UHGV virus genome: UHGV-1410056
From: a virus
Length of the DNA: 40,444 nt
Reading direction: 5' to 3' (one strand)
Under the pieces are notes generated by a model, which did not search any database, was not told the origin of the DNA, and saw only the letters and a list, made by a program, of their open reading frames with translations. Of the stretch, positions 5,540 through 38,924 are shown piece after piece; position 1 is the stretch's first letter; every line of letters begins with the position of its first letter. The translations under genes and the position numbers were made by a program.

Positions 5540-6124
5540 TTATTGTTTGCTTTTTTCGTTCTGGTTGATGACAAATTCAATGTAACTTTCGATCTTTGCT
5601 TTCTCGGTTTCGGGTAACAATGCGTAGCGTGAGCGGTCATAGTTGATAGTCGCAGGGTCGTGCGGGTGAATCAGTAGTTCATATCCGTGACGCCCGAATG
5701 CGGATGCAACATTCTCCAGGGTGGAAATGGAAACGCTGACCTCATTGTTTAACAGGCGGCTGATTGTCACCTGGGCGACGCCGGATGCGCGGTGAAGTTT
5801 TCCCTGTGTTGAAAGGTCGCGGCTTTCGCTCATCCAGCGTTCCAGGTTGTGAGCCGCCAGCTGACCTATATCGCTCGGGCCGACAGGCTGAAAACCCTCC
5901 TGAGAAAGCGAACGATCAATATCAAGCCAGTTACGGGGTTTATTGGCGGCAGCTTCAATTTTTCGTGCAACCTGGTCGCCGATAACCTTCTTGCCAAGAG
6001 CCCAGCGGTTTACCAGATTTGCCTGAGTTCCAAGTTTTTCTGCCATCCGCGTCTGAACACCATTGAATTCACGGTCGATCAAGTCGTTGAGATTTTGCCT
6101 GCGGACGTCCTGGATACTTTTCAT
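5540..6124 (-). CDS. CI-like phage repressor with two HTH (XRE-type) domains and no S24 peptidase domain
   Basis: 194 aa; two HTH-like segments (TRMAEKLGTQANLVNRW... and ASGVAQVTISRLLNNE...); no Ser/Lys autocleavage module; divergent from Cro-like gene; no SD before ATG (possibly leaderless). Confidence 0.7.
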   Translation of the reverse strand: MKSIQDVRRQNLNDLIDREFNGVQTRMAEKLGTQANLVNRWALGKKVIGDQVARKIEAAANKPRNWLDIDRSLSQEGFQPVGPSDIGQLAAHNLERWMSESRDLSTQGKLHRASGVAQVTISRLLNNEVSVSISTLENVASAFGRHGYELLIHPHDPATINYDRSRYALLPETEKAKIESYIEFVINQNEKSKQ

Positions 6125-8466: not shown

Positions 8467-8543
8467 TTACCTGTTAGGTAACAAAATATTATAAACTCTA
8501 TTGATTTCATGTCTTATGTGGTTTTTAATTACCTCAGAGGTAA
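8467..8543. promoter_or_regulatory. Two perfect TTACC-N5-GGTAA operators (8467-8481, 8529-8543) immediately upstream of the gene starting at 8547
   Basis: Second site overlaps the SD (GAGG 8537-8540). Confidence 0.55.
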
Positions 8544-32032: not shown

Positions 32033-32055
32033 CAAAAAAGCCCGCAGCGCGGGCT
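32033..32055 (-). terminator. Rho-independent terminator (minus strand) after the AT-rich two-gene cassette
   Basis: Stem AGCCCGC (32039-32045) / GCGGGCT (32049-32055), A6 on plus (T6 on minus); stem overlaps the stop codon at 32054-32056. Confidence 0.6.
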
Positions 32056-32494
32056 ATTCTTCTTCATCATTAAAAAGCGGATTGTTGTTTCCATCTGATG
32101 AAAGGAAAGGTATGTGTTCTCTTGAAAATCCAACAATGACAATTTCATTATCATTTTTTGCATAATGAATGCATTCATTAGAATGCCTTCCGCCAGGGTT
32201 GAAATTTAAGTTAATGGTATAATTCTTAAATGTGTTTGGATACCATGTTGGCCCACAATGATAATGCCAATAATTCTCTTGCTCATAATTGTCTGAGCCG
32301 GGAATTTTATCATGGTTATCATCAACCCACGAGGGCTTGTTTTTTCCAACAAGCGCCCTTCCATTGGCAACATCCTCTAAAAAACTTTGTATGATTTTTA
32401 TTTCATCATCAGTAAGGAAAGGTCCGTCTACAGCGAAAGGGGTGTTGCTTTCCCCATGTAGAAAACTATTAGATATTCTAATGTTAAACTTCAA
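32054..32494 (-). CDS. AT-rich hypothetical protein (146 aa, TTG start), unknown function; second gene of a two-gene cassette
   Basis: Track ORF 32054..32635 has no internal Met and its N-terminal 47 codons overlap the upstream small gene; TTG at 32494 preceded by AGGAG (6-nt spacer); His/Cys-rich segments (HYHCGPTW, GRHSNECIHY); markedly lower GC than surroundings. Confidence 0.45.
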   Translation of the reverse strand: MKFNIRISNSFLHGESNTPFAVDGPFLTDDEIKIIQSFLEDVANGRALVGKNKPSWVDDNHDKIPGSDNYEQENYWHYHCGPTWYPNTFKNYTINLNFNPGGRHSNECIHYAKNDNEIVIVGFSREHIPFLSSDGNNNPLFNDEEE

Positions 32495-32514
32495 GGAAAA
32501 CTCCTGATGTGCTT

Positions 32515-32682
32515 CTATTTGGAGCGAAATGCCGCCTTGAAGTCGCTGAAAGATGTTCCTGTCTGGTAAACCATATCCTTGTCGCGCTCTTTGCTTGCGC
32601 GGCCAAGCATAACTTTTCCAATGACATCCCAGCATTGCTTGGCTTGTTCATTGTGCTGAGTACGATTTTTCAACGCTGTCAT
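32515..32682 (-). CDS. Small hypothetical protein (55 aa, MTALKNRTQHNEQAKQCWDVIGKVMLGRASKERDKDMVYQTGTSFSDFKAAFRSK); first gene of the two-gene cassette
   Basis: Not in the ORF track; ATG 32682 with AGGAGG 6 nt upstream; operator 32695-32709 immediately upstream. Confidence 0.5.
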   Translation of the reverse strand: MTALKNRTQHNEQAKQCWDVIGKVMLGRASKERDKDMVYQTGTSFSDFKAAFRSK

Positions 32683-32694
32683 ATCGCGCCTCCT

Positions 32695-32709
32695 TTACCT
32701 TTAAGGTAA
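32695..32709. promoter_or_regulatory. Perfect TTACC-tttaa-GGTAA operator upstream of the two-gene cassette
   Basis: Lies 13 bp upstream of the start codon of the 55-aa gene. Confidence 0.5.
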
Positions 32710-32781
32710 TAGTACGCTATTCACCCACAGTCTGCAATCTGTACAGAATTATTTAAAGGCACATCCCTGTGCCACCGCCCG

Positions 32782-33889: not shown

Positions 33890-34618
33890 ATGGAAGTTTT
33901 CTGGATAGTTGTTGGTGTGGTTGCGGTGATTATTTACGTTATCAACCAGAACAAGACTAAGATCTCTGATCGTACGGTCGTTAATCATAACAAAACGATA
34001 AAGACCGAAGATGGGGAGATAACGATTAATCGTACACAGGTGATAGAACACACCTCTACTCAGTTTCAAAAAACTGGAGGTAATGCGCCTAATATTTCCG
34101 AACCTCCTGCTTATGATAGTGCGGTAATCCAGACATATTGTAAACAGCAGGAGTTAGCAAAAGAGAGGCAACTGATTCAGCCAAAGCCGTTTACAGCTGA
34201 GCTTCCACCTGGAGTATCAATGCGTCCGGCATATCATGGAAGATTCCCTGGTGATGACATATCGTCTCAGTCATCTAAAAAAGCACCTCAGGCAGTATCA
34301 GAGCCAGCAAGAATACCTTCTGTATCGCCGCCAAAAGAAGAATCAGCTAACAGAGTTTCAAGTGGCCGCAAGCAGTGTTTGCGATGCAGAATAAACCTTC
34401 CATATGACAAATTCCGGAAATCGTCAAAAAATCCAGATGGATTGACTAAGTGGTGTGCAAGGTGTCTCGATGGCCCAAAGAATACACGCCATATGAAGTG
34501 GTGCCCAATTTGTAATGTCCGCAGAAAACGGACCAGCTTTTACCCTAATAATCAAAATGCGGACGGCTTAATGGCATGGTGCAAAACGTGCTGGGACGAG
34601 CACAAAGCGAAACGATAG
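33890..34618 (+). CDS. Membrane-anchored protein with C-terminal tandem CxxC zinc-ribbon-like repeats; unknown function
   Basis: 242 aa; N-terminal TM helix (EVFWIVVGVVAVIIYVI); C-terminal repeats CLRCRINLPYDKFRKSSKNPDGLTKWCARC and CPICNVRRKRTSFYPNNQNADGLMAWCKTC. Confidence 0.55.
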   Translation: MEVFWIVVGVVAVIIYVINQNKTKISDRTVVNHNKTIKTEDGEITINRTQVIEHTSTQFQKTGGNAPNISEPPAYDSAVIQTYCKQQELAKERQLIQPKPFTAELPPGVSMRPAYHGRFPGDDISSQSSKKAPQAVSEPARIPSVSPPKEESANRVSSGRKQCLRCRINLPYDKFRKSSKNPDGLTKWCARCLDGPKNTRHMKWCPICNVRRKRTSFYPNNQNADGLMAWCKTCWDEHKAKR

Positions 34619-35093: not shown

Positions 35094-38000
35094 ATGACGG
35101 TCTCAACCGAAGTTGACCACAACGAATACACCGGTAACGGCGTTACGACATCGTTTCCGTATACTTTTCGAATTTTCAGAAAATCAGACCTGGTTGTTCA
35201 GGTGTCTGACCTGAACGGAAACGTAACAGAATTGGTTCTGGATACCGGTTATACGGTAACTGGGGCGGGCACTTATAGTGGCGGTTCTGTGGTTCTTCCG
35301 TCTCCGCTTGCTACTGGATGGCGAATTACGATAGATCGTGTGCTTGATGTAGTGCAGGAGACAGACCTTCGCAATCAGGGAAAATTTTTCCCCGAAGTGC
35401 ATGAAGATGCCTTTGACTACCTGACGATGCTGATCCAGCAATGTTTTGGGTGGTTCAGACGTGCATTGATGAAACCATCTTTGCTTGCAAAATATTACGA
35501 TGCAAAGCAAAACAAAATTTCTAACCTTGCAGATCCATCATTTGAGCAGGACGCTGTAAATAATCGCTCAATGCGTAATTATGTCGATGCTGCAATCGCC
35601 GGGGTTGTTGGTGGTTTTGGTTGGTTTATTCAGTATGGTTCTGGGGCTGTGTACCGAACGTTCCAGGATAAAATGCGTGATGCTATTAGCCCCAAAGATT
35701 TTGGAGCTGTTGGTGATGGTATAAATGACGATTCCACTGCAATAAGCGCGTGCCTTGAAGCCTCATCTCCAGGTTATAAAATTGACGGATTAGGGCTTAC
35801 TTTTAAAGTATCAACTCTTCCGGATGTCAGTCGATTTAAAAATGCTCGTTTTTTATTTGAGAGAATACCGGGCCAGCCTCTTTTTTATGCTTCTGAAGAT
35901 TTTATCCAGGGAGAGTTATTTAAAATTACAGATACACCGTGGTACAACGCCTGGACGCAGGATAAAACGTTTGTATATGACAATGTCATCTATGCGCCTT
36001 TTATGGCTGGAGACCGCCATGGTGTAAATAACCTCCATGTTGCATGGGTTCGCTCAGGAGATGACGGGAAGACCTGGACAACGCCGGAATGGCTTACAGA
36101 TTTACATGAAAACTATCCCACAGTTAACTATCACTGCATGAGTATGGGGGTTGTCAGAAATCGCCTTTTTGCTGTAATTGAGACGCGGACCGTGAGCGGA
36201 AATAAACTGCAGGTTGCAGAGTTGTGGGATCGCCCAATGAGTCGCAGCCTTCGCGCTTATGGTGGTATAACGAAAGCAGCAAATCAGCAAGTCGCTTATA
36301 TTCGCATTACTGATCACGGATTATTTGCTGGTGATTTTGTCAACTTCTCAAACTCTGGTGTTACAGGTGTTACCGGGAATATGACGGTGACTACTGTTAT
36401 TGATAAAAATACTTTTACAGTTACGACGCAAAATACCCAGGATGTGGATCAGAATAACGAGGGTAGATACTGGAGTTTTGGTACATCATTTCACTCGTCA
36501 CCATGGAGAAAAACCAGTCTTGGAACTATTCCTTCTTTTGTTGACGGAAGCACTCCTGTTACTGAGATTCACAGTTTTGCGACGATTAGCGATAACAGTT
36601 TTGCTGTTGGCTACCATAATGGTGATATTGGTCCACGCGAGCTTGGGATACTCTATTTCTCTGATGCTTTCGGTTCTCCTGGTAGCTTTGTTCGCAGACG
36701 CATACCTGCAGAATATGAGGCGAATGCATCTGAGCCATGTGTAAAATATTATGATGGCATTCTGTATCTGACGACCAGGGGGACATTAAGTACTCAACCC
36801 GGTAGTTCATTGCACAGAAGCTCTGATTTAGGTACATCATGGAATTCTCTTCGCTTCCCAAATAATGTTCATCACTCAAACCTTCCTTTTGCCAAAGTTG
36901 GCGATGAGCTGATTATTTTTGGCAGTGAGCGCGCATTTGGTGAGTGGGAAGGAGGAGAACCTGATAACCGTTATGCAGGAAATTATCCAAGAACATTTAT
37001 GACCAGAGTTAACGTCAATGAGTGGAGTCTGGATAATGTAGAGTGGGTTAATGTTACTGATCAGATTTATCAGGGCGGAATAGTTAACTCTGCAGTTGGT
37101 GTTGGTTCAGTTTGTATCAAAGACAACTGGCTGTACTACATTTTCGGTGGGGAAGACTTTCTAAACCCATGGAGCATAGGGGATAACAACAGAAAATATC
37201 CTTATGTTCACGATGGTCACCCGGCTGATTTGTATTGTTTCAGGGTGAAAATTAAACAGGAAGAATTTGTTTCAAGGGATTTTGTCTACGGAGCCACTCC
37301 TAACAGAACGCTTCCTACTTTTATGTCGACGTCAGGCGTGAGGACGGTTCCTGTACCCGTTGATTTCGCAGATGATGTTGCCGTCCAGTCACTGACTGTC
37401 CATGCAGGTACATCAGGACAAGTTCGCGCGGAAGTCAAACTTGAGGGTAATTACGCCATTATTGCGAAGAAAGTACCGTCTGATGATGTTACCGCTCAGA
37501 GATTAATCGTTAGCGGCGGTGAAACAACGTCTTCAGCAGATGGTGCAATGATAACGTTGCATGGTTCCGGAAGCAGTACTCCACGTCGCGCGGTATATAA
37601 CGCACTCGAACATCTTTTTGAGAACGGAGATGTTAAACCTTATCTTGATAATGTAAATGCTCTTGGTGGTCCGGGAAACAGGTTCTCGACAGTTTATCTT
37701 GGCTCCAATCCTGTGGTTACCAGTGACGGAACATTAAAGACAGAGCCGGTCTCTCCTGACGAAGCATTGCTGGATGCCTGGGGTGACGTCAGGTATATCG
37801 CTTATAAATGGCTGAACGCTGTCGCTATAAAGGGGGAAGAAGGGGCGAGGATACATCATGGTGTAATCGCGCAGCAACTTCGTGATGTTCTTATTTCTCA
37901 CGGACTCATGGAAGAAGAAAGCACAACATGCCGCTATGCCTTTCTTTGCTATGACGATTATCCCGCAGTATATGATGACGTCATTACTGGCCAAAGGGAA

Positions 38001-38213
38001 ATGCCGCTGACTGATAATGACGGGAGCATCATTGTTGATGAGGATGATAATCCAGTGATGGTAATGGAAGACATCATTGAGCGCGTTGAAATAACGCCAG
38101 CAGGATCTAGATGGGGGGTCAGACCTGATCTCTTATTCTATATCGAGGCAGCATGGCAGCGCAGAGAAATGGATAAGATAAAAGAGCGGATTCAGTCTCT
38201 GGAAGAACGTTAA
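35094..38213 (+). CDS. Tailspike: endo-N-acetylneuraminidase (endosialidase) with C-terminal intramolecular chaperone domain
   Basis: 1039 aa; T7 gp17-like N-terminal head-binding region; two sialidase Asp-boxes (SGDDGKTW, SSDLGTSW); long collinear match to K1F-type endosialidase catalytic region as I recall it; C-terminal about 162 aa resemble the autocleaving chaperone domain with predicted cleavage at Ser877/Asp878 (37722-37727). Confidence 0.8.
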   Translation: MTVSTEVDHNEYTGNGVTTSFPYTFRIFRKSDLVVQVSDLNGNVTELVLDTGYTVTGAGTYSGGSVVLPSPLATGWRITIDRVLDVVQETDLRNQGKFFPEVHEDAFDYLTMLIQQCFGWFRRALMKPSLLAKYYDAKQNKISNLADPSFEQDAVNNRSMRNYVDAAIAGVVGGFGWFIQYGSGAVYRTFQDKMRDAISPKDFGAVGDGINDDSTAISACLEASSPGYKIDGLGLTFKVSTLPDVSRFKNARFLFERIPGQPLFYASEDFIQGELFKITDTPWYNAWTQDKTFVYDNVIYAPFMAGDRHGVNNLHVAWVRSGDDGKTWTTPEWLTDLHENYPTVNYHCMSMGVVRNRLFAVIETRTVSGNKLQVAELWDRPMSRSLRAYGGITKAANQQVAYIRITDHGLFAGDFVNFSNSGVTGVTGNMTVTTVIDKNTFTVTTQNTQDVDQNNEGRYWSFGTSFHSSPWRKTSLGTIPSFVDGSTPVTEIHSFATISDNSFAVGYHNGDIGPRELGILYFSDAFGSPGSFVRRRIPAEYEANASEPCVKYYDGILYLTTRGTLSTQPGSSLHRSSDLGTSWNSLRFPNNVHHSNLPFAKVGDELIIFGSERAFGEWEGGEPDNRYAGNYPRTFMTRVNVNEWSLDNVEWVNVTDQIYQGGIVNSAVGVGSVCIKDNWLYYIFGGEDFLNPWSIGDNNRKYPYVHDGHPADLYCFRVKIKQEEFVSRDFVYGATPNRTLPTFMSTSGVRTVPVPVDFADDVAVQSLTVHAGTSGQVRAEVKLEGNYAIIAKKVPSDDVTAQRLIVSGGETTSSADGAMITLHGSGSSTPRRAVYNALEHLFENGDVKPYLDNVNALGGPGNRFSTVYLGSNPVVTSDGTLKTEPVSPDEALLDAWGDVRYIAYKWLNAVAIKGEEGARIHHGVIAQQLRDVLISHGLMEEESTTCRYAFLCYDDYPAVYDDVITGQREMPLTDNDGSIIVDEDDNPVMVMEDIIERVEITPAGSRWGVRPDLLFYIEAAWQRREMDKIKERIQSLEER

Positions 38214-38219
38214 AAAAAA

Positions 38220-38239
38220 GCCCGCAATATTTTGCGGGT
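38220..38239. terminator. Hairpin immediately after the tailspike stop; terminator-competent mainly for the minus direction
   Basis: Stem CCCGCAA / TTGCGGG with loop TATT; A8 precedes it on plus (T8 after it on minus); plus-side downstream is TATCAAAAA (poor U-tract). Confidence 0.45.
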
Positions 38240-38519
38240 ATCAAAAACGGAGTTTGTGAAAAGTTATCTTTGAATTCTATCATGAATCAGTACGTATTTT
38301 AAATACATGTTCAGGTTTATTACACCATAGCATTATTAAATACAAAATTAAGTCTATGGTTCCTGTACAACTGCCCCCACTCTGCTGGCTCGTTCTGTAA
38401 AATCATTAGTACTTTTATTGAGATATATGATATGGAACAATAATGATTCATATATGGTTTACTATGCGGGTTTAGTCATCAATAATTGACTGGCTTATAG
38501 ATAGTAAACAGGAGAAAGT

Positions 38520-38924
38520 ATGTCTGCTCAAGTAACAAGTGAGCAATTAAATCAGTTGCTTAGTTTTAGTTCTCTTGCTGCGGTTATTGCAGGTGCCCCT
38601 CCGGAGGTTGCTTTAGGGGCTTTGGCTGGGGCGGTAATTTTTGTTACCTCTGCAGTAGAGTACCCCATCCGTCGCCGGGTGCTCCTGTCGATGCTCAGCT
38701 TTCTTTGCGGCCTTCTCTTTTACAAACCAGCAGCATCAATTCTTATCGGCATAGCCAGCCTGATCCCTACCATCACGCAGGACTCTTTTGAAAAAGGGAT
38801 TGTTTTCTCTGCAGGCGCATTCGTGTCAGCAATTGTCGCTGTGCGTATTGGTATATGGCTCTATCACCGTTCCGATAATCCACGCGAGTTAATTCCGGGG
38901 AGAAAAGACGATGGTAACGCATGA
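38520..38924 (+). CDS. Putative holin (multi-pass membrane protein)
   Basis: 134 aa; 3-4 hydrophobic segments; first gene of lysis cassette; CAGGAGAAAG SD. Confidence 0.5.
   Translation: MSAQVTSEQLNQLLSFSSLAAVIAGAPPEVALGALAGAVIFVTSAVEYPIRRRVLLSMLSFLCGLLFYKPAASILIGIASLIPTITQDSFEKGIVFSAGAFVSAIVAVRIGIWLYHRSDNPRELIPGRKDDGNA

Follow-up and report, generated by a model that had tools for sequence, protein, structure and literature searches.

Gene content of the cassette

The virus genome UHGV-1410056, analysed here as a window of 40,444 nucleotides (nt), carries on its minus strand a cassette of two small genes, referred to as gene A and gene B, in a slot between a Bro-N antirepressor gene (ant) and a gene for a 53-amino-acid (aa) membrane protein. 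All coordinates refer to the whole window unless a locus is named. Gene A (32515-32682, minus strand) encodes a basic protein of 55 aa with an isoelectric point (pI) of 9.8, a putative antitoxin that corresponds to phrog_8607, WP_000125783.1 and Orf9 of MN187550. It is separated by 20 nt from gene B (32054-32494, minus strand), which starts with TTG and encodes an acidic protein of 146 aa (pI 4.9; phrog_5954, WP_000671198.1), a putative YafO-like toxin of the RelE/ParE fold. Putative Shine-Dalgarno sequences are located on the same strand 6 nt ahead of both start codons, AAGGAGG (32689-32695) for the ATG of gene A and AGGAG (32501-32505) for the TTG of gene B at 32494. An intrinsic terminator, AGCCCGCGCTGCGGGCT with a TTTTTG tail (32033-32055, minus strand), has a 7-bp stem with 6 GC pairs and a 3-nt loop and overlaps the TAG stop codon of gene B. 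The two genes, the Shine-Dalgarno sequences and the terminator over the stop codon had been described in a first-pass annotation of this DNA, and all were recovered on the minus strand. An 821-bp region with the cassette matches Escherichia phage phiv142-3 (MN187550) at 100% identity. This phage is an epsilon15-like Uetakevirus and an E. coli K1 prophage from the avian pathogenic Escherichia coli (APEC) strain DE142, and at least 80% of this region was found in 77 of 5,426 complete E. coli genomes (about 1.4%).

The TTG start of gene B, which had likewise been proposed, is supported by an end-to-end match of residues 1-142 to positions 1-143 of the 143 in phrog_5954, by the identical 441-bp coding sequence called by RefSeq PGAP (WP_000671198.1) and by the homologues, the ATG, TTG or GTG start codons of which align with this position and are located 2-20 nt past the stop codon of the upstream partner gene. 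A mechanically called open reading frame (ORF) of 193 aa from an ATG at 32635 is not conserved and overlaps gene A in another reading frame, in agreement with the earlier view that its N-terminal extension is junk. Gene miscalling also affects the GenBank record of the phage, in which a 52-aa 'orf10' (QGF19616.1; 32206-32364, minus strand) is annotated out of frame within gene B. The possibility that gene B is a 5'-truncated pseudogene was rejected, since the 146-aa protein is conserved and comparison to all homologues and to the PHROG profile shows it to be full-length.

The GC content of gene B is 35.6% compared to 48.8% for the window, and only 0.15% of 441-bp windows have values as low. 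This supports a foreign origin, as had been suggested from its AT-richness. The description of the protein as His/Cys-rich was overstated: it contains 7 His and 2 Cys residues, and the invariant positions in the wider family are H77, H79 and H127 only. A zinc-finger or Cys-rich protein was rejected on the grounds that there are only two Cys residues and that C80 is not kept in the wider family. We conclude that the cassette is a real, conserved and mobile two-gene module.

Conservation and predicted fold of gene B

Relatives of gene B were identified in 34 clusters from the Enterobacterales and the Pasteurellaceae in a word-indexed search, and an exhaustive profile search yielded 121 cluster representatives. 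The family is overwhelmingly phage-borne, with members on 77 viral contigs, where they occupy nin or moron regions in phages of several types. The homologues have an open frame of 141-172 aa, and the conservation extends down to about 25-40% identity with the invariant residues retained. In an alignment of 94 family sequences, H77, H79 and H127 were the only invariant residues, while F11, G50, N52, K53, S55, Y78, Y111 and F130 were conserved in at least 90%.

Neither gene A nor gene B matched any model in scans of Pfam, NCBIfam and PADLOC, performed with single sequences as well as with the whole families, and in PHROGs both matched families of 'unknown function' only. The curated Pfam models for members of the RelE/ParE group (ParE_toxin, YoeB, YafQ, HigB, BrnT and others) matched 0 of 25 and 0 of 94 gene B family members, and NCBIfam gave none. 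Profile searches against the PDB produced only spurious matches for both proteins, with no RelE match for gene B, and nothing significant was obtained with Foldseek against the viral structures in BFVD. A literature search on the accession numbers, on YafO combined with anti-phage and on Uetakevirus combined with toxin-antitoxin (TA) retrieved no description of the gene B family, which is not proof of absence.

The AlphaFold2 model of gene B has a predicted local distance difference test score (pLDDT) of 91.7 and a predicted template modelling score (pTM) of 0.86. It conforms to the RelE/ParE fold, which is defined by N-terminal helices packed on an antiparallel sheet of 3-4 strands, and the 25 best structural neighbours were all metal-independent toxins. 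A Foldseek search with the model placed the same toxin families on top, weakly (E 0.16-1). According to the model, gene B has the RelE/ParE toxin fold, like the mRNA interferases RelE, YafQ, YoeB and HigB. The structure of PaaA2-ParE2 (5czf) was also among the matches, but a gyrase poison of the ParE type is less likely for the modelled protein because ParE matches rank below the RNase-type toxins and because His, Lys and Tyr residues are conserved in gene B. H127, located right after the last beta-strand, is in the same position as H87 of YafQ and H83 of YoeB, the catalytic His residues of these toxins.

Linkage of gene A to gene B

Close homologues of the 55-aa gene A are few. A hidden Markov model (HMM) of the enterobacterial 55-aa family was compared to 2,000 six-frame ORFs from 25 loci, and the top 13 matches all corresponded to the ORF directly upstream of a gene B homologue, with E values of 0.002-0.05 for Haemophilus and 0.021 for Klebsiella, and with noise above E 3. 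The partner proteins share about 45 residues at the C-terminus, in which an aromatic residue is followed by ...V-L-x-R and then by F/Y-x3-S-x-D/E-D/E-h. An HMM of this motif matched the directly upstream ORF in 73 of 77 IMG/VR loci at E <= 1e-5, with just one match elsewhere among the 7,913 six-frame ORFs in these loci; in the other four, overlapping or more divergent partners were seen by eye. The gap to the gene B homologue is mostly 7-52 nt in the viral loci, and the N-terminal parts of the partners vary from none (55-60 aa) to about 160 residues. The linkage was also observed in at least 17 genomic loci, including those of Pasteurellaceae, Neisseriaceae, Aeromonas and Klebsiella. In Erwinia aeris (locus L010, 2191-2941) the pair stands alone, flanked by accA and mtnA, which are housekeeping genes, and phage genes are absent from its vicinity.

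Adjacent and co-oriented small genes, a short gap, the putative antitoxin upstream and linkage across genomes, all of which the cassette and its homologues show, are features of the type II TA layout. That the genes form a toxin-antidote pair is argued chiefly from the strict and phylogenetically wide linkage in combination with the predicted toxin fold. The opposite assignment, with gene A as the toxin, was rejected since a strain without gene B is viable and since the enzyme-like invariant residues are located in gene B.

In the nin region of Klebsiella lambdoid prophages (L004-L007, 3391-4486), genes for proteins of 95 and 102 aa precede a gene B homologue of 161 aa as called, and only the C-terminal segment of about 45 residues in the 102-aa protein resembles gene A. 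The partners in Pasteurellaceae prophages (L011-L023), located downstream of the tape-measure gene, are 160-211 aa in size and have no Pfam domain. Their N-terminus is hydrophobic and similar to a signal peptide or transmembrane segment (e.g. MTNLSLNPIFESFAPIFKQLKVAAMSALFIAPLA), which is unusual for an antitoxin.

Comparison with YafO and other toxin-antitoxin systems

YafO has been shown experimentally to be a ribosome-dependent endoribonuclease (PMC7180214, citing Zhang 2009). It has been classed apart from RelE for want of a structure, and a review from 2020 notes the lacking structural information (PMC7180214). We compared the gene B family to an alignment of YafO proteins (relatives of gp44, the IH5 protein and YafO of K-12) using hhalign, which gave a score of 20.5 and an E value of 0.02 at a probability of only 2-3%; column-shuffled nulls reached this score in 3 of 199 cases. 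The alignment is colinear across 107 columns and pairs the invariant residues of both families, with G50-K51, H77, H79, Y111 and H127 of gene B aligned to G56-K57, H74, H76, Y121 and H140 of the YafO family, respectively. Likewise, the motifs GKNK, WHYH, TS..VIHY and IvgfS..H are paired with GKD, RHTH, TSdsfLVY and lvmFf.d.dAH. The best AlphaFold2 model of a YafO-family protein (pLDDT 83) has the same order of structural elements as gene B, with the motifs on the same elements. Used as positive controls, gp44 (8.1e-6) and IH5 (7e-4) matched the Pfam model PF13957, confirming their annotation as 'YafO family toxin'. From the aligned motifs and the predicted structures, we describe gene B as 'YafO-like within the RelE/ParE superfamily' and do not file it as a member of PF13957.

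The pair YafN-YafO of E. coli (PF13957) and the phage-encoded YafO pairs (gp45/gp44 of phage TL-2011b and the pair of E. coli IH5) are like the cassette in that the small gene comes first and the larger gene second. In the profile alignment, support for which is marginal, gene B and YafO have in common a colinear series of G-K/R-D/N, x-H-x-H on a strand, S...h-h-Y, a hydrophobic strand and an invariant His 3-5 residues further on, and their secondary-structure elements are predicted to occur in the same order. For the phage pairs of TL-2011b and IH5, the likeness includes the slot, the promoter, the palindrome, the terminator and the polarity of a basic partner and an acidic toxin. Gene B differs from YafO by a GKNKPSW strand and by an insertion, about 25 residues long, that follows the HxH strand and precedes the Y strand, and the C-terminal helices of gp44 are missing from gene B. 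Gene A is unrelated to YafN, a member of Phd/YefM, and no similarity to gp45 was detected; like gene A, the phage YafO partners gp45 and the 108-aa protein of IH5 have no Phd/YefM match.

RelE-RelB, YafQ-DinJ, YoeB-YefM and HigB-HigA resemble the cassette as two-gene operons in which the putative antitoxin gene comes first. The RelE/ParE toxins are 85-120 aa in size, whereas gene B has 146 aa with two insertions, and the mRNA interferases of this group are basic, whereas gene B is acidic and has no detectable sequence similarity to them. The antitoxins of the group have DNA-binding domains of the ribbon-helix-helix, Phd/YefM or helix-turn-helix (HTH) type, none of which is present in gene A. 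The PaaR2-PaaA2-ParE2 system of E. coli O157:H7 is composed of a toxin of the RelE/ParE fold, an antitoxin of about 60 aa without a DNA-binding domain and a separate regulator, in a prophage-like context. A very small partner without a DNA-binding domain, control by a separate regulator and a prophage-like context are also what we propose for the cassette. ParE2 is of the ParE type, whereas gene B is nearer to the RNase branch (higher Z) and keeps the His typical of catalysis. Unlike PaaR2-PaaA2-ParE2, the cassette has no third gene for a regulator, and control would come from the repressor network of the phage.

A cargo slot with alternative payloads

An alignment of six E. coli prophages with different payloads in the slot revealed a near-invariant ant stop codon, a hairpin, the sequence TTGCAG-N17-TACTAT and the palindrome arms TTACC/GGTAA. 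The homology stops directly after the palindrome and returns about 12 nt ahead of the stop codon and the terminator. Between these borders, the payloads encode proteins of 55+146 aa (the cassette), 59+181 aa and 108+170 aa (both of the YafO family), 62+110 aa, 210 aa and a DUF4760 protein of 179 aa. The alternative payloads are located in E. coli prophages at L002 3167-3866, L029 733-1255, L030 766-1398, L031 835-1374 and L032 749-1574. A 'YafO family toxin' pair occupies the identical position in phage TL-2011b and in many E. coli prophages, and both YafO pairs from the slot combine a basic small partner with an acidic or neutral large protein, as do gene A and gene B. The 62+110-aa pair and the 210-aa payload had no family match, and no PADLOC match was obtained for any alternative payload or for the neighbours of the cassette.

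The hairpin, GGCACA-GGGA-TGTGCC (32758-32773, minus strand), is located 3' of the ant stop codon and is invariant in the six variants; it is a weak terminator-like element that parts ant from the slot promoter. The terminator sequence also follows the YafO payload in TL-2011b and is part of the conserved backbone. Since the promoter, the palindrome and the terminator are conserved across payloads, they belong to the phage and not to the cassette. The first-pass annotation had placed the cassette in an accessory hotspot next to the tailspike. The five other payloads, two of which are YafO pairs, uphold the hotspot, whereas about 2.4 kb, containing ant and a gene for a 242-aa protein, lie between the cassette and the tailspike.

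Slot promoter and putative operator network

The slot promoter consists of a -35-like element, TTGCAG (32732-32737, minus strand), 17 nt upstream of a -10-like element, TACTAT (32709-32714, minus strand). The former is weak (7 of 12 consensus positions) and near-invariant in the six payload variants. The last T of TACTAT is also the first base of the palindrome TTACCTTAAAGGTAA (TTACCTT-A-AAGGTAA; 32695-32709), which has perfect arms of 7 nt and is a putative operator and one copy of a phage-wide motif. A promoter scan reported GTGGCA-16-AATAAT at 32775-32748 rather than TTGCAG/TACTAT. The geometry of the -10 element and the palindrome recurs at 8529 (TTTAAT-TACC) and 12352 (TACTAT-TACC).

With up to one mismatch, the motif TTACC-N5-GGTAA occurs in 14 copies in the window (11 of them exact), compared to an expectation of 0.59, and 14 copies were reached in none of 100 shuffles. 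The copies are located at 151, 5405, 5468, 6180, 6228, 8467, 8529, 12352, 12370, 15517, 32695, 33762, 33855 and 34975, all of them intergenic and at the heads of transcription units, including copies in the ant region and at the start of the terminase operon. Pairs of palindromes are present on both sides of a gene for a 194-aa HTH_3 repressor-like protein (5540-6124), in a layout similar to OL-cI-OR. The palindrome is moreover conserved ahead of six different payloads. From its sequence and distribution, the palindrome is probably the operator of the phage repressor or of Cro. The claim that the cassette has its own operator was rejected, since other payloads have the promoter and the palindrome too, as parts of the backbone, and since the window contains 14 copies of the palindrome in all.

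The same motif also precedes a homologous cassette in a Pectobacterium prophage. In the Klebsiella lambdoid loci, the sole copy in 8.5 kb heads the 95+102+161-aa operon, although the phage backbone is unrelated. The palindrome may have travelled with the cassette, which is a puzzle beside the view that it belongs to the phage backbone.

The published orf10 mutant

Deletion of 'orf10' in phiv142-3 lowers serum survival to about 60%, decreases kps transcripts about 2-fold and reduces the loads in the blood and hearts of chickens to 7-8% (PMC7724020). The phenotype was restored with a plasmid, and the mutant is viable and grows normally in lysogeny broth (LB) (PMC7724020). In the transcriptome of cells in serum compared to LB (Supplementary Table S1, PMC7724020), 'orf10' was up-regulated by a log2 value of 4.12 (about 17-fold) and ant by 1.31.

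We mapped the Lambda-Red homology arms, which correspond exactly to 32365-32424 and 32146-32205. In DE142 delta-orf10, gene B therefore lacks codons 44-97 and with them the GKNKPSW and WHYHCG motifs, and gene A is intact. The orf10 frame is interrupted by 7-12 stop codons in homologues, and the published phenotype is most probably that of gene B. The normal growth of a strain in which gene B is deleted and gene A is intact fits the loss of a toxin rather than of an antitoxin. This is of interest since the APEC virulence result changes meaning, as the decreased serum resistance and colonisation of delta-orf10 would be those of a knockout of a toxin-like gene.

A probable toxin-antitoxin-like module as exchangeable cargo

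On balance, we consider the cassette to be probably a type II TA-like module, an exchangeable cargo that epsilon15-like (Uetakevirus) prophages carry in a fixed slot. The first-pass annotation had likened it to TA and to some abortive-infection or immunity modules from its layout, and this gains support from the RelE/ParE fold, from the partner linkage in Enterobacterales, Pasteurellaceae, Neisseriaceae and Aeromonas and from the YafO pairs in the same slot; the suggested comparison with a curated defence catalogue gave no match for gene A or gene B among the 5,027 models of PADLOC. In the proposed mechanism, gene B would be an endoribonuclease, probably acting on translated mRNA, with a catalytic centre formed by H77-x-H79 on a beta-strand, H127 just past the last strand and the G50-K51-N52-K53 strand. 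Gene A would be the neutralising partner, the C-terminal motif of which would bind and block gene B. Since gene A has no recognisable DNA-binding domain, transcription is probably not autoregulated by the pair and would instead be set by the slot promoter and the palindrome of the phage-wide operator family. The operator is probably bound by the HTH repressor of the prophage, the gene for which is flanked by palindrome pairs. The weak TTG start may hold the synthesis of the toxin below that of the antitoxin. Prophage maintenance, exclusion of other phages and modulation of host expression are all conceivable roles of the cassette.

Several observations weigh against this interpretation. No sequence homology of gene B to a known toxin family is significant by standard criteria (0 of 94 members match Pfam toxin models), and the Pfam YafO_toxin model PF13957 was matched neither by 25 close relatives of gene B at E <= 10 nor by the 94 members at E <= 0.01. 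Only one of five AlphaFold2 models of the YafO-family protein was confident, the other four being poor. The acidic gene B (pI 4.9) and the basic gene A are the reverse of the classical RelE/RelB polarity, which is unexpected for a toxin that binds ribosomes or RNA, and the three invariant His residues could form a metal site instead. Pfam and NCBIfam revealed no domain, DNA-binding or otherwise, in gene A and none in the longer variants of the partner; with this and a palindrome that belongs to the backbone, the antitoxin DNA-binding domain and the autoregulation that define type II systems were not found, and autoregulation is, as far as the sequence tells, probably absent. Finally, orf9 (gene A) is missing from the list of up-regulated genes although it is located between ant and orf10 on the same strand, which is odd for a simple bicistronic operon (PMC7724020).

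The serum data bring another explanation to the fore, namely that the RelE-fold gene B is a phage-encoded modulator of host expression that alters the K1 capsule and serum survival by selective mRNA cleavage or ribosome binding, with gene A as a cofactor or regulator. This would account for the reduction of serum survival, kps transcripts and chicken loads upon deletion of codons 44-97, the restoration by plasmid and the 2^4.12-fold induction in serum (PMC7724020), and the acidic gene B is unlike classical mRNA interferases. We nevertheless regard it as unlikely: the effects are modest and could stem indirectly from low-level toxin activity or from the FRT scar, PMC7724020 does not state how much sequence the complementing fragment spans, and the K1 capsule is absent from many hosts of the gene B family. 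Strict pairing across distant taxa and autonomous two-gene islands are furthermore the signature of a toxin and its antidote, not of a host-specific regulator. We assign a similarly low probability to a primarily anti-phage function, in which the pair acts in abortive infection (Abi) or superinfection exclusion and the RNase becomes free or active once another phage infects the cell. Several TA systems act as Abi systems, the cassette occupies a variable prophage slot alongside alternative toxin-like payloads, its family is overwhelmingly phage-borne (77 viral contigs) and its promoter is wired to a phage-wide operator. However, sharing a slot with other cargo is circumstantial, and none of the PADLOC models matched. 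Such a function is also a statement on the role of the pair, compatible with a TA module and not exclusive of it.

An H-x-H on one strand with a third His nearby is a common metal-binding arrangement, and the sole invariant residues among the 94 sequences, H77, H79 and H127, fit this pattern. Gene B could on these grounds be a metal-dependent enzyme or metal-binding protein and not an RNase, with the RelE-like topology serving as a scaffold. We find this improbable given that all 25 top structural neighbours are metal-independent, that K53, N52 and Y111 are conserved too, as in acid-base RNase sites, and that the His pattern recurs in the YafO family, for which ribosome-dependent endoribonuclease activity has been shown experimentally (PMC7180214). 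Least credible of all is the idea that two unrelated small morons share a promoter, or that the published orf10 of 52 aa is the true product. GenBank annotates orf10 and a phenotype has been attributed to it (PMC7724020), but its frame has 7-12 stop codons in homologues in which the gene B frame remains open, gene B is conserved to about 25-40% identity with its invariant residues, and the partner is linked in about 100% of the loci (73 of 77 by HMM and 4 by eye).

If the TA-like interpretation is correct, gene B represents a new family among the RelE/ParE toxins, left as 'hypothetical' by Pfam, NCBIfam, PHROGs and PADLOC and present also in many Pasteurellaceae prophages. The partner family has no known relatives, and gene B offers a structural handle on YafO-type toxins. 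A wider proposal, which we put forward only tentatively and hold to be rather doubtful, is that the cassette belongs to a largely phage-borne and unrecognised TA family that combines an acidic RelE-fold toxin with an antidote of about 45 residues without a DNA-binding domain, the expression of which is wired to prophage repressor operators. In that case toxin activity would be coupled to the lysis-lysogeny state, and the toxin would alter serum resistance and capsule expression, the published phenotype being reassigned from the non-existent 'orf10'. The slot itself is now defined from the promoter/operator to the terminator with at least six payloads, and is a place in Uetakevirus to seek accessory or defence genes.

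Neighbouring genes

The gene for the 242-aa protein (33890-34618, plus strand; phrog_6762) is divergent from ant and has two palindrome copies upstream. Its product contains an N-terminal hydrophobic segment and two C-terminal Cys-rich repeats with weak matches to Stc1, endonuclease VII, HNH and Lar-like profiles. The tailspike ORF of 1,039 aa (35094-38213, plus strand) is an endosialidase (K1-capsule depolymerase) by annotation in a near-identical prophage, and the GenBank record of the phage calls just a 709-aa 'tail fiber' (orf6) for it. The 3' end of the tailspike gene together with the following spacer, at 38100-38520, constitutes the other strongly AT-rich patch of the window, with a GC content of about 35%.

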